A stretch of DNA of 17,322 nucleotides from Myxococcota bacterium (GTDB lineage Bacteria; Myxococcota; JACRCW01). Position numbers and translations under genes: made by a program. The stretch lies in assembly GCA_040752415.1 (NCBI GenBank), contig JBFMGU010000222.1:1-17322 (forward strand). Reading direction: 5' to 3'. The notes under the pieces are model-generated. The model saw nothing but the letters and a program-made list of their open reading frames with translations, was not told where the DNA came from and searched no databases. Below, piece by piece: positions 1,918 through 6,376 of the stretch (positions are counted from its first letter, which is position 1; each line of letters opens with the position of its first letter).

Positions 1918-1956
1918 GCTCCCGCCCCGGATGGCATGGCAGTCCATGGAGGCGTC

Positions 1957-4110
1957 GTGAAGCAGTTCATTGAAATCATCAAGGCCGGCGGCCTTGCCAC
2001 GGTGATGAAGCGCTACGCCGACGTCGCTCTGGCGGGCGTGGTGGTCCTCATCCTCAGCATGTTCATCATGCCGGTCCCGCCGCTGGTCCTGGACCTGCTC
2101 ATCACCATCAACGTCTCCGTGTCCATGGTGATGCTCCTCATCGCCATCTACATCCCCAACGCGCTGGCGCTGGCCTCCTTCCCCTCCATCATCCTCGTCA
2201 CCACGCTGTTCCGGCTCGCCATCTCCATTGCCTCCACCCGCCTCATCCTCCTCACCGCGCACGCCGGAGAGGTGATCCAGGCGTTCGGCCAGTTCGTCGT
2301 CGGCGGTAACTTCGTCGTCGGCGCGGTGATGTTCCTGCTGCTCACCCTGATCAACTTCCTCGTCATCACCAAGGGCAGCGAGCGTGTGTCGGAAGTGGCC
2401 GCGCGCTTCACCCTGGACGCCATGCCCGGCAAGCAGATGTCCATTGACGCGGACCTCCGCGCCGGTGCCTTTGACCTCGACGAGGCCCGCAAGCGCCGCA
2501 ATGACCTCGGTCGTGAGTCGCAGCTGTTCGGCTCCATGGACGGCGCCATGAAGTTCGTGAAGGGCGACGCCATTGCCGGCATCATCATCACCGTCATCAA
2601 CATCGTGGCCGGCCTGATCATCGGCGTGATGCAGATGGGCATGACGGCCGGAGAGGCCATCCAGACCTTCGCCATCCTCACCATCGGCGACGGGCTCGTG
2701 GCCCAGATCCCCGCGCTGCTCATGGCCACCTGCGCCGGTCTCGTGACCACGCGCGTGGCGTCCGAGGAGGAAGGCGCCAACCTCGGTCAGGACCTCGCCG
2801 GTCAGATCCTCGCGCAGCCCAAGGCGTTCGCCATTGCCGCGGGCTTCCTCATCGGCATGGGCATCGTGCCCGGCATGCCCACCGTGCCGTTCTTCCTCAT
2901 TGCCACCACGCTGGCGGGCCTCAGCTACGGCCTCTTCAAGGCGCAGAAGCTCAAGGGCGGCGCGGGCGGGCCGGTGGCCGACGTCGTGGCGGAGCGCGAG
3001 GAGAAGGCGGAGGAGCAGAAGAAGGAGGCGGTGCAGAAGGCCAAGGCGCAGGAAGGCCAGAGCCAGCAGATGCTGCCGGTGGTGACGCCCATTGCGCTGG
3101 AGGTGGCGTCCGACCTCATCCCGCTCGTCGACGACGCCACGGGCAGCAAGTTCCTCAACGAGATGATCCCGATGATGCGCGACGGTCTCTTCTATGAGCT
3201 CGGCGTGCGCTACCCCGGCCTGCGCGTGCGCGGCAACGAGGGTGACCTGCCCAAGGGCGCGTACATCATCATGATCAACGAGATTCCCCTCGTCATGGGC
3301 ACCGTGGACCTGGGCAAGATCCTGGTGAACGACACGCCCGAGCGCCTCCGCCTCCTCAACATCCCCGGCGAGCCCGCCACCAACCCGGCCAACGGCAACG
3401 ACTGCGCGTGGGTGAGCGTGGAGAACAAGGAGCTGTGCGAGCAGGCCGGTCTGACGACGTGGGATGCCTCCGGCTTCATGGTGCTGCACCTCTCCGCGGT
3501 GCTGCGCAAGAACGCCAGCGAGTTCGTGGGTATCCAGGAGACCCAGAACATGCTGGAGCAGCTGGAGATGGCCTTCCCGGCGCTGGTGAAGGAAGTGGTG
3601 CCCAAGGCGGTCAGCCCGTTCCAGCTCACGGACATCTTGCGGCGTCTCGTCGAGGAGGAGATCTCCATCCGCGACCTGCGCTCCATCCTGCAGGCGCTGG
3701 CGGAGTGGGGTCCCGTCGAGAACGACACCGTGATGCTGACCGAGTACGTGCGCGCCGCGCTCAAGCGGTACATCAGCCACAAGTACACGCGCGGTCAGAG
3801 CACGCTCATCGTGTACCTCATCGACCCGCAGATCGAGGAGACGGTGCGCTCCTCCATCCAGCACACCAGCTCCGGCAGCTACCTGGCATTGGAGCCGGAG
3901 ATCACGCAGGAGATCCTGGCGGCGGTGCGCAATGAGATTGGCAACCTGCCTCCCAGCGCGCAGCAGCCGGTGATCCTGACGACGATGGAAATCCGTCGTT
4001 ACTTCCGCAAGCTCGTCGAGCTGGAGTTCCCGCACCTCGCGGTGCTGAGCTACCAGGAGCTCTCGCCGGAAATGAACATCCAGCCCATTGCGCGTATCAG
4101 CCTGGGCTGA
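1957..4110 (+). CDS. sctV: Type III secretion export-gate protein SctV (LcrD/InvA/FHIPEP family), non-flagellar type
   Basis: Multi-TM N-half with ERVSEVAARFTLDAMPGKQMSIDADLRAG. SctV-type motifs: ESQLFGSMDGAMKFVKGDAIAG, LTEYVRAALKRYISHKY, GSYLALEPE, VLSYQEL. GGAGG at 1948-1952 favours GTG 1957; ATG 1936 is the alternative. Confidence 0.92.
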   Translation: MKQFIEIIKAGGLATVMKRYADVALAGVVVLILSMFIMPVPPLVLDLLITINVSVSMVMLLIAIYIPNALALASFPSIILVTTLFRLAISIASTRLILLTAHAGEVIQAFGQFVVGGNFVVGAVMFLLLTLINFLVITKGSERVSEVAARFTLDAMPGKQMSIDADLRAGAFDLDEARKRRNDLGRESQLFGSMDGAMKFVKGDAIAGIIITVINIVAGLIIGVMQMGMTAGEAIQTFAILTIGDGLVAQIPALLMATCAGLVTTRVASEEEGANLGQDLAGQILAQPKAFAIAAGFLIGMGIVPGMPTVPFFLIATTLAGLSYGLFKAQKLKGGAGGPVADVVAEREEKAEEQKKEAVQKAKAQEGQSQQMLPVVTPIALEVASDLIPLVDDATGSKFLNEMIPMMRDGLFYELGVRYPGLRVRGNEGDLPKGAYIIMINEIPLVMGTVDLGKILVNDTPERLRLLNIPGEPATNPANGNDCAWVSVENKELCEQAGLTTWDASGFMVLHLSAVLRKNASEFVGIQETQNMLEQLEMAFPALVKEVVPKAVSPFQLTDILRRLVEEEISIRDLRSILQALAEWGPVENDTVMLTEYVRAALKRYISHKYTRGQSTLIVYLIDPQIEETVRSSIQHTSSGSYLALEPEITQEILAAVRNEIGNLPPSAQQPVILTTMEIRRYFRKLVELEFPHLAVLSYQELSPEMNIQPIARISLG

Positions 4111-4137
4111 GGACTCATCCCCGGTCTATCGGTTCCT

Positions 4138-4362
4138 CGGACGTCGTGAGCGGACCTCGACCTGGAGTGCGGCGGGCCCTCGCCGCCCTGGTCAGCGCCG
4201 AGCGGTTTGCTCGCCCTGCCAACGGTCCTTCACCCGAGAGCGACTCAGCCGCCGATTTTTCCGTCGTTGGCGGCCTCCTGGCCGTGAGGGGGGCTCGGTG
4301 GGCTCTGGCCAGGGCGGTGACAGGCGACCGCGCTCCAGGTCGAGGTCCGTTCACGACGTTTG
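4138..4362 (+). repeat. Long intergenic inverted repeat; candidate structured RNA or MITE-like element
   Basis: 4141-4172 pairs with 4328-4359 (30 WC + 2 G.U). 4180-4199 pairs with 4301-4320 (17 WC + 2 G.U + 1 mismatch) in the same register. Inner hairpins at 4199-4213 and 4248-4274. Confidence 0.9.
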
Positions 4363-4483
4363 CTTTCCCGATGGGCGCCATCTCCTGGCGGACCCGCCCA
4401 GTCATCCCTCAGGGGGATGGCAGCTCACGATCCGTTCCGTACGCTTCCATTTGGCGTGGCCACTTCCACGCGCGGAGGTAGGG

Positions 4484-4732
4484 ATGAAGAATCTGTTTGC
4501 AGCAGTGGCGCTCACGTTGGTGACGAGCACAGCGGTGGCGCAGGGCGTCCCGGGGCAGAAGAAGAATGAGCCGGTCCAGACCTACGACTTCTCCGTCATC
4601 GTTCTCGACGGAACTCGCACCGTTCCGGGTTGTGACTACATCCCAGCCCGGAAGCGAACCAAGTTCCGCAACATGATCGAGGTCCGTGCGAACTTCCACC
4701 CGGAGATGAACCAGAGCGCGTCGTCACTCTGA
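4484..4732 (+). CDS. Small secreted CglF/GltF-like protein (82 aa; adventurous gliding family)
   Basis: GGAGG at 4474-4478, signal peptide ending AVA-Q, then TYDF...LDG...PGCDYIPARKRTKFRNMIEVRANFHPEMNQSASSL. This matches the CglF pattern as I recall it (DF..D.IEG....PDG.Y..ARK..KH..LI.IR..F...M.QS...L). Confidence 0.75.
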   Translation: MKNLFAAVALTLVTSTAVAQGVPGQKKNEPVQTYDFSVIVLDGTRTVPGCDYIPARKRTKFRNMIEVRANFHPEMNQSASSL

Positions 4733-4735
4733 CCT

Positions 4736-6376
4736 TCACGGCAGCGCGTAGGGCGGCGGTGTTCCTGACCGGAATGTGTACCGCGCCCCGTGCCAGTGCG
4801 TGATTTCCTCCAGCCGCAGCGCATTCATCTCCGCCATCGCGTTGCGCACCTCCGCCATCGTGCGCACCCCGGTGCGAACGGCCGCCTCCCAGACCGGCAC
4901 CCCGCGCTCCAGGCTCATGCGCAATGCGGCGGTGACCATTTCCTCGTCGTCAGGAAGCAGCGCGTGCAGCACGCCGCGGTGCACGTCCGGTTGTTGCACG
5001 TAGACCAGCGCGCCTTCCCGGAAGAACGCCAGCGCCTCACGCAGGCCCTTGATGTGCAGCGCACCCGTCGAGCGCATGTCGCGCAGGCTTGTGAGCAGCT
5101 CGTCGGGCTCGGTGAGCTCGCCGGCAATCCCGGTTTCCCGGTACGGCGGCAGCGGCACGTAGGGATCCAGCATCCACAGGCGCGCCACGTCGGAGAGCGT
5201 GAGGGGCGGGAGGCCCGGAGCACGCAACGTCGTCGAGCGCGGAATGAGTCCCGCACCCAACCGCGCCAGCAGCTGCAATCCCGCCATGGGCCCAGGCGGC
5301 GAGCCCATCCCGCCCACCTCCACCTGCCCCTCACGTTCCCGCAGCGACGAGAGCTTCGCGCTGACGGTGCGCGGCTCCGTCGGCAGCATGGTGGCGGAGC
5401 GTTGCGGACGAGCCAGCGACGTCAACGTCTCCGGCCGCAATCCCTCGACGTAGCGGTCCACGCGCAAGGCCAGCTCCGCCTGGAAGTCGACGGAGAACCG
5501 GTCCAGCACGTGCGAGACCTGCTCCTCCAGCTCCCGCGCGGTCTGCACGCGCTGCGCCGGGTCGCGCTCCAACGTGCGCATCACCAGCCGGTCCAGCTCG
5601 ACGGGAACCTCCGGGTTCAGCTCCCGCACCGACGGAATGGGCGCCTCCAGCACCGCGCGCATCACTTCGTATTCGGTCTTCAGGTTGAACAGCCGCTTGC
5701 CGGTGAGGAGCTCCCACAACGTCACGCCCGCGCTGAAGATGTCCGCGCGCTGGTCGAACGGTTTCTCCGAGAGCATCTCCGGGCACATGTAGCTGAGCTT
5801 GCCCTTCACCTCTCCGGTCAGCGTCCGACGCACCTGGTTGTTCGCCCGCGCCACGCCAAAGTCGCCCAGCTTGGCCTCGCCCCGACGGGTGAGCAGGATG
5901 TTCCCTGGCGTGACGTCGCGGTGGATGATCCCCAGCGCCCGCCCCGAGGGATCCCGCGCCGCGTGCGCGTAGGTGAGCCCCTTGAGCATGCAGGAGCCCA
6001 GGTACACGGCAACCGCCAGCGGCAACGCCTCCCGACGACGAGCCGCGCCCTCCATGAGCTGCCCGACGTCGCCGCCGTCCATCAGCTCCAGCACCATGGC
6101 AATCTCACCGTCGGGCAGTGAGAGCAGCTCCCGCACCTGCACCACGTTGGGATGACGGAGCTGGACCGAGAGCCGCGCCTCGTCGTCGAACATGGCGCGC
6201 AGCCGGTCGTCGGTGCGCAGCGCGGTGAGGAGGCGCTTGATGACCACCAGGCGTGGCGTCACGTCGGGGTCGGAGTGTTCCGCCAGGAGCACCTCCGCCA
6301 TCCCGCCACGCCCTAACCGCGACAACACGGCCCACGGGCCGAGCACGTACGGTTGAAACGGGTCGCGGACGCTCAC
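4736..6376 (-). CDS. Cytoplasmic Hanks-type Ser/Thr protein kinase with GYF_2-like and DUF4388-like C-terminal regions
   Basis: LGRGGMAEV, VVIKRL, HRDVTPGNILL, DFGVA, GKLSYMCPE, ADIFSAG; no TM segment. Start is GTG 6376 (GGAGG 12 nt upstream) or 6412. Confidence 0.93.
   Translation of the reverse strand: MSVRDPFQPYVLGPWAVLSRLGRGGMAEVLLAEHSDPDVTPRLVVIKRLLTALRTDDRLRAMFDDEARLSVQLRHPNVVQVRELLSLPDGEIAMVLELMDGGDVGQLMEGAARRREALPLAVAVYLGSCMLKGLTYAHAARDPSGRALGIIHRDVTPGNILLTRRGEAKLGDFGVARANNQVRRTLTGEVKGKLSYMCPEMLSEKPFDQRADIFSAGVTLWELLTGKRLFNLKTEYEVMRAVLEAPIPSVRELNPEVPVELDRLVMRTLERDPAQRVQTARELEEQVSHVLDRFSVDFQAELALRVDRYVEGLRPETLTSLARPQRSATMLPTEPRTVSAKLSSLREREGQVEVGGMGSPPGPMAGLQLLARLGAGLIPRSTTLRAPGLPPLTLSDVARLWMLDPYVPLPPYRETGIAGELTEPDELLTSLRDMRSTGALHIKGLREALAFFREGALVYVQQPDVHRGVLHALLPDDEEMVTAALRMSLERGVPVWEAAVRTGVRTMAEVRNAMAEMNALRLEEITHWHGARYTFRSGTPPPYALP

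Follow-up and report, generated by a model that had tools for sequence, protein, structure and literature searches.

The hairpin downstream of sctV

In the window, by which we mean the whole 17,322-nt stretch of DNA that has been analyzed, the gene for the type III secretion export-gate protein SctV is followed by a giant hairpin, and the question arises whether a structured RNA has been selected at this locus or whether the palindrome has reached it from elsewhere. The first-pass annotation favored the former, taking the + strand fold to be under selection as an RNA, be it an sRNA, a stem downstream of sctV that RNase III would process, or the leader of the following ORF, and named a MITE as the alternative. 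A recount of the pairing has confirmed the hairpin at 4138–4362 in the register i+j=8500. Its outer helix is longer than originally counted, with 35 instead of 32 consecutive pairs (4138–4172 with 4328–4362), and is separated by a 7 × 7 interior loop, located at 4173–4179/4321–4327, from an inner helix that had been given 20 positions and in fact comprises 16 consecutive pairs (4180–4195), followed by mismatches up to about 4203. An extra helix of 9 pairs (4124–4132/4368–4376) lies beyond the limits that had been set for the hairpin, and the cap hairpin GCCGCCGAT/GTTGGCGGC at 4248–4274 has been recovered in the MFE fold.

As RNA, the + strand folds with −160.5 kcal/mol (z = −10.5; none of 200 shuffles was as good) and the − strand with −140.6 kcal/mol (z = −8.0). 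This difference speaks for a + strand RNA, as do the six G.U/U.G pairs and the complete lack of A.C oppositions in the + strand helices, and the position of the hairpin in a co-directional gap makes co-transcription with sctV possible. The strand-specific G.U pattern that had been described is present in the helices; two C.A oppositions, 4173/4327 and 4178/4322, lie inside the interior loop, and the transition mismatches of this copy overall (6 vs. 2) do not reach significance. Neither promoter-like nor terminator-like sites have been found across 3900–4800, which counts against an RNA gene. The earlier remark that the hairpin belongs to no recognized RNA family holds, as Rfam has returned nothing above threshold. 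The sole match in a scan of 3800–4800 at E ≤ 1 was RF04159 (MIR1437, a plant miRNA precursor), for which 36.5 bits were obtained and 168 are needed to reach the gathering threshold; the element is not a member of this family, and the match arises only because both are long, nearly perfect hairpins.

A dispersed family of palindromic repeats

The genome to which the window belongs (11.0 Mb in 520 contigs, 96.8% complete, 68.9% GC) contains many relatives of the hairpin. Searching it with the 225-nt stretch has yielded 94 matches, and blastn with the left arm 234 arm matches, which resolve into 85 inverted pairs, i.e., complete copies, and 64 unpaired arms, on more than 100 contigs. Altogether the genome holds at least ∼110 copies, and as 47 of the 64 unpaired arms are situated less than 300 nt from a contig end, the repeat evidently breaks this assembly. 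When copies are aligned together with their flanks, conservation extends 57–58 nt outward beyond the hairpin to termini of the form GGGGCTGCGTCAG(A/G)ACAAG, and GGGGCTGCGTCAG is present at both ends in inverted orientation. A length of 292–293 bp has been found for 22 of the 41 copies in which both termini could be recognized (range 278 to 360); the lengths show no 3-nt periodicity, the centre varies with indels, and the elements are non-coding. The hairpin at 4138–4362 is the inner part of such an element, its long helices arising by pairing of the two inverted arms.

The mean identity per column, profiled over 95 terminus-anchored arms, divides each arm into segments. Positions 1–25 from the terminus, of which 1–12 served as the search seed, are 77–88% identical; an outer module at about 26–45 reaches about 62% and occurs in at least two types, A and B; the core at about 46–100 is 85–93% identical; and the centre, beyond about 105, drops to 56–65%. 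Centres from 81 copies fall into clusters of 59, 13, 2, and 2 members plus five singletons. Among 70 copies, the outer modules are combined as AA in 22, AB in 15, and BB in 9, with 24 other or untyped, so that the modules are non-complementary in 15 of the 46 copies for which each end could be assigned to type A or B. Arms that are unable to pair in their outer segment are therefore common, which argues against a fold maintained as RNA.

The arm core has the layout GCGG.CCACGACCTGGAGTGCGGCGG-loop-CGCCGCCCTGG.CAGCG and includes a small hairpin, in which one subfamily shows a compensated change from C-G to T-A (TA in 4 arms, the intermediate CA in 3). A variant core explains some of the irregularities of the giant hairpin in the window, where the left arm has a canonical and the right arm a variant core. 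The 7 × 7 interior loop results from the canonical small-hairpin loop on the left opposing the variant loop on the right, and the non-Watson-Crick positions 4173/4327 (C.A) and 4182/4318 (G.U) are the two sides of the C-G to T-A change; they stem from this difference between the cores and not from compensation at the RNA level. Wobble bias is likewise absent from the family: arm mismatches on the + strand of 70 copies (4 dropped at contig edges) amount to 378 of G.U-type vs. 340 of A.C-type, and those on the sense strand, counted over the 31 copies in co-directional gaps, to 151 G.U vs. 154 A.C (p = 0.91).

The strong conservation of the core between an outer module and a centre that are both exchanged among copies has led us to consider two further possibilities. 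The ∼55-nt core may be a selected protein-binding or RNA-processing module placed between interchangeable ends and centres, a reading of the alignment that we regard as tentative and rather unlikely. Alternatively, the repeat could be of mobile origin and domesticated, the host keeping copies at gene 3′-ends for a function of core or hairpin, e.g., as a transcript-end or stabilizer hairpin or as a binding site of a nucleoid or other protein. The identity profile and the compensated pair in the small hairpin would both fit such a role; core conservation could, however, also reflect transposase binding or recent spread, and a single compensated pair is weak evidence.

Target sites and genomic context

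The flanks of 155 termini have T at −3 in 80 cases and A at −1 in 102, with −2 unbiased, which describes a T-N-A trinucleotide. Identical 3-nt flanks have been observed for 8 of 41 complete copies, compared with a mean of 2.3 and a maximum of 8 in 2000 shuffles, and of ten copies with T.A on both sides, the middle base is the same in seven, complementary in two, and different in one. The last alternative offered by the first-pass annotation, a MITE, has proved right, as has the sign by which it was to be recognized, many dispersed copies with target duplications, here probably of 3 bp. The family would insert at T-N-A trinucleotides and duplicate them. One nested insertion, into a second repeat family, reads GAACACC-GAA-[295 bp]-GAA-CCCCCC, and 72 uninterrupted GAACACC-TNA-CCCCCC sites of that second family occur genome-wide. 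For most copies, including that of the window, no intact duplication is visible, and several have inverted instead of direct flanks, e.g., TCA...TGA.

Some copies (C122:703-994, C124:49335-49627, and C84:7545-7841) carry an additional inverted layer of ∼52 nt, giving an onion-like palindrome. The extra layer begins again with GGGGCTGCGTC and ends with GGCGAACACC-TNA, and the TNA flanks of these copies are inverted (TCA...TGA, GAA...TTC) and not direct. A palindromic host of ∼100 bp for these nested copies has been considered and rejected, given that no empty GCGAACACC-N-GGTGTTCGC palindrome is found in the genome.

Of the 155 termini, 14 directly adjoin the stop codon (12 TGA, 2 TAA) with which a long GC3-rich ORF ends, and no other offset within ±60 nt of stop codons collects more than 4 termini. 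In a genome of 69% GC, TGA or TAA stop codons often provide the TNA sites that tolerate an insertion, and copies therefore accumulate at gene 3′-ends. The distribution over intergenic gaps is biased: of 74 core-paired elements, 31 lie between co-directional genes, 28 between convergent and 5 between divergent ones, with one inside an ORF and 9 at contig edges, against a background of 3149 co-directional, 1106 convergent, and 1085 divergent gaps (chi-square p = 1.3 × 10−5). The share of convergent gaps is thus 44% for the copies and 21% for the background, that of divergent gaps 8% and 20%, respectively. Such enrichment and depletion would be anticipated if the host retained the repeats at gene 3′-ends, but the same bias is also expected from purifying selection against hits in promoters combined with the targeting of stop codons, and we consider domestication unlikely.

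The copy at the sctV locus

The gene sctV (FHIPEP family, Pfam PF00771, E = 5.5 × 10−237) occupies 1936–4110 on the + strand, including its TGA stop at 4108–4110, the presumed T-N-A target that adjoins the element. In the relative G002, SctV shows 93% identity across the C-terminal 300 aa and has the same ending, ...QPIARISLG*. As the C-terminus is the same in this ortholog, the TGA is native and the element starts immediately after it. A left terminus at 4103 (TGGGCTGAG, consensus-like) has been rejected, since 4103–4110 is native sctV coding sequence according to the G002 ortholog. In G002, the identical C-terminus is followed by ∼180 nt of unrelated DNA without any match to the element and then by a convergent LRR gene, so the comparison provides an sctV that lacks the element, with downstream synteny lost at the stop. 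The window element would thus be described as inserted directly after the sctV stop codon, and its absence downstream of the ortholog counts against a processing stem or other RNA that belongs to sctV. Any effect of the element on sctV at the RNA level would be putative. Clean empty sites have not been obtained from G002 at two further loci, which matched on one flank only.

G002 SctV shows its 93% identity although G002 belongs to another family of the same class, and two other G002 loci match at just 67–73% nucleotide identity; judged from these sequences, this type III secretion gene may either be conserved to an unusual degree or have been exchanged.

Following the stop codon, a stretch at 4111–4127 probably represents the left terminus in decayed or shortened form, as local alignment of the arm consensus reaches only 4128 and 17 nt are present ahead of the ATCGG landmark where the family has 25 nt. 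The left arm (4128–4207, +) combines an A-type outer module with a canonical core at 4150–4204, in which 53 of 55 positions agree with the consensus of the family. Its small hairpin at 4169–4186 (+) consists of GCGGCG, a 6-nt loop, and CGCCGC, and is found in this exact version in 167 of 236 arms. The variable centre (4208–4295) forms local hairpins such as that at 4248–4274 and is of a type that, in the clustering of 81 copies, is common only to C121:2912-3145. The right arm (4296–4397, −) has a variant core of the GCGGTC..CCTGT..CACCGC type, which the consensus core search (E ≤ 1 × 10−3) did not retrieve; the alignment of this arm with the terminus of the consensus runs to 4397. No duplication is recognizable: TGA stands on the left, and on the right CCC follows 4397, with TCA at 4402–4404. 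The nearest relative, again C121:2912-3145, is merely 74.6% identical (238 of 319 aligned positions), which indicates that the window copy is old.

The small ORF further downstream (4487–4732, +, 81 aa) lies outside the element; it has a signal-peptide-like N-terminus and no Pfam family at E ≤ 0.001. Two open frames run through the GC-rich palindrome itself, at 4146–4481 (+) and 4115–4405 (−), with 111 and 96 aa. Both are almost certainly spurious, though gene prediction programs will probably report them as hypothetical proteins.

Distribution in other genomes

The family has not been found outside its own genome within the genomes searched. Blastn with 4100–4400 has given no match in 40 relatives, of which one belongs to the same family, two to the same class, and all others to the same phylum. 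A covariance model built from 44 arms for the core (A1/R1), for which stricter filters were set and 31 candidates in each genome were scored, has given none in 150 sampled genomes of the phylum. This restriction argues against an RNA conserved with sctV. Together with the recurrence of the element at least ∼110 times elsewhere in the genome, which leaves the proposed selection for a + strand RNA fold (novel RNA, RNase III stem, or leader) unsupported, it has largely refuted a structured RNA as the identity of the element, and we regard that explanation as highly improbable.

The exact core pattern with a free loop has been searched for more widely and occurs in a single record among the GTDB species genomes, a Phycisphaerae MAG (JBDKRA010000053.1, L042:395-445), and in none of the metagenome contigs. 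The match comprises 26 specified bases (CCTGGAGTGCGGCGG, 6 free bases, CGCCGCCCTGG), is the only one in 596 Gb, and consists of a short hairpin followed by a T-run directly after a stop codon. The recurrence may be due to chance or to a shared module.

The presumed mobilizing enzyme and related repeats

From the 3-bp T-N-A duplication, we infer cut-and-paste mobilization by a DDE transposase of the IS5/Harbinger type, which would be supplied in trans. No transposase with matching termini has been found in the 520-contig, 96.8%-complete assembly; as repeats are often unassembled, the enzyme may have been missed. PF01609 has given two matches. The one on C499 is a DUF772/DDE_Tnp_1 protein of 417 aa, the one on C279 a fragment, and both lack matching termini and inverted repeats. 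PF13359, PF13340, and PF13586 have given none each in the genome.

An autonomous partner has been sought by pairing termini up to 6 kb apart. No transposase lies within the candidates C18:24333-26520, C434:10156-11215, C86:6428-10534, C257:43176-47521, and C457:22608-25308, which span other repeats or ordinary genes. Another one, C108:13257-14094, has turned out to be another palindromic non-coding element of 838 bp with inverted arms of ∼270 nt, starting with the GGGGCTGCGTCAGAACAAG terminus that it has in common with the hairpin element. It belongs to a second, larger palindromic family headed by the same 13–19-nt terminus, which accounts for 42 of 201 terminus matches genome-wide. C108:13257-14094 also contains a GAACACC-TNA-CCCCCC site, the kind of site into which the 293-bp element has been inserted at least once. 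The outer termini of the MITE family are common to two other repeat families in total, and one terminus on different families is expected if a single transposase acts in trans.

A different route of spread would be that of a REPIN-like REP doublet, in which inverted cores are propagated as ssDNA by a single-copy Y1 enzyme (RAYT) and no target duplication is made. The architecture fits, with two inverted, near-invariant units of ∼55 nt that have internal hairpins and surround a less conserved spacer; exact duplication is missing in many copies, and the genome encodes two Y1_Tnp genes (PF01797). The flanks of these genes are, however, devoid of the core motif and the repeat found there is a different one, with the reservation that the upstream flank of the gene on C12 is cut by the contig end. 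Moreover, the conserved outer termini and the T-N-A flanks with a same-base duplication in 7 of 10 copies point to a DDE-type cut at the ends of the element, and we judge REP-like spread to be improbable.

The Y1 genes themselves have repeats of other kinds nearby. On either side of the RAYT-like gene at C24:5900-6232 stands a palindromic repeat based on CCTGCCAATCTCATTGGCAGG. This locus, C24:5470-6400, has copies on C36, C171, and C93, and the stretch C24:5200-7000 produces 300 blastn match lines genome-wide; gene and repeat together resemble a REP/REPIN-RAYT system of their own. The second Y1 gene sits at a contig start and is followed closely by a tandem duplication of ∼105 nt (C12:422-632) with 87% identity.

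Relation to known mobile elements

The family resembles IS5-derived MITEs (IS1031/IS427/ISL2) and the PIF/Harbinger “Tourist” MITEs, which are also small and non-coding with TIRs and many dispersed copies and likewise have a T-N-A target; the 3-bp duplication that they make is probably shared as well. The IS1031 and IS427 groups prefer TNA targets. The family described here differs from all these MITEs in its unusually long arms (>100 nt), in having the strongest conservation in a subterminal position, and in that no IS5-type transposase with these termini has been found in the assembly. Canonical Harbinger transposons make 3-bp duplications and are grouped with the IS5 family (PMC12730594).

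Among hairpin-forming repeats, the Correia elements (NEMIS) of Neisseria are similar in habit. These MITEs are present in 100–300 copies in transcribed intergenic DNA, measure 100–155 bp with inverted repeats of ∼26 bp, duplicate TA, and form mosaics of subtypes with interchangeable ends; RNase III cleavage and IHF binding have been documented for them. The family described here has in common with them the hairpin and the interchangeable ends but is ∼293 bp long and targets TNA. REPINs consist of two inverted imperfect-palindrome units that form a long hairpin and are extragenic, RAYT-mobilized, and present in hundreds of copies. Unlike these, our family has defined outer termini and probable TNA duplications, and the Y1 genes of its genome are not flanked by the repeat. 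The ERIC/IRU sequences of enterobacteria are imperfect palindromes in intergenic positions near gene ends (127 bp for ERIC) with no defined TNA target; they are alike in their habit near gene ends and unrelated in sequence.

Identity and significance of the element

Taking these observations together, the segment 4111–4397 of the window is best explained, with a probability of roughly 0.8, as an old and partly decayed copy of a ∼293-bp palindromic, non-autonomous MITE. The elements are short and non-coding, have terminal inverted repeats, and occur in many dispersed copies with unique flanks; the family is a new one of the TNA-targeting, IS5/Harbinger-like type. Being a copy of a dispersed MITE, the hairpin is to be classed with ordinary selfish DNA instead of with RNA genes that occur once. 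Against this assignment count the failure to find an autonomous partner or a clean empty site, the restriction of exact duplications to 8 of 41 copies, the inverted flanks of several copies, and the missing duplication of the window copy. In addition, the best conservation resides in the subterminal core of ∼55 nt and not at the extreme ends, a peak that is unusual for transposase-binding repeats.

In the parts of the literature that were accessible to our search, no relevant paper on MITE or REP elements of myxobacteria has come up, nor one on a stop-codon-landing habit of TNA MITEs for Myxococcota. The repeat accounts for a conspicuous hairpin, which an annotator unaware of it would take for a new RNA, and its practical effects are spurious ORFs and assembly breaks at about 47 contig ends. 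If the core were indeed a selected module, elements homing to stop codons would deliver a ready-made 3′-end hairpin to genes, and the Phycisphaerae match would be in keeping with such a module moving between phyla or recurring in them. For the MITE family as such, the genome adds a well-populated example of TNA-targeting elements whose insertion falls precisely on a stop codon and restores it.
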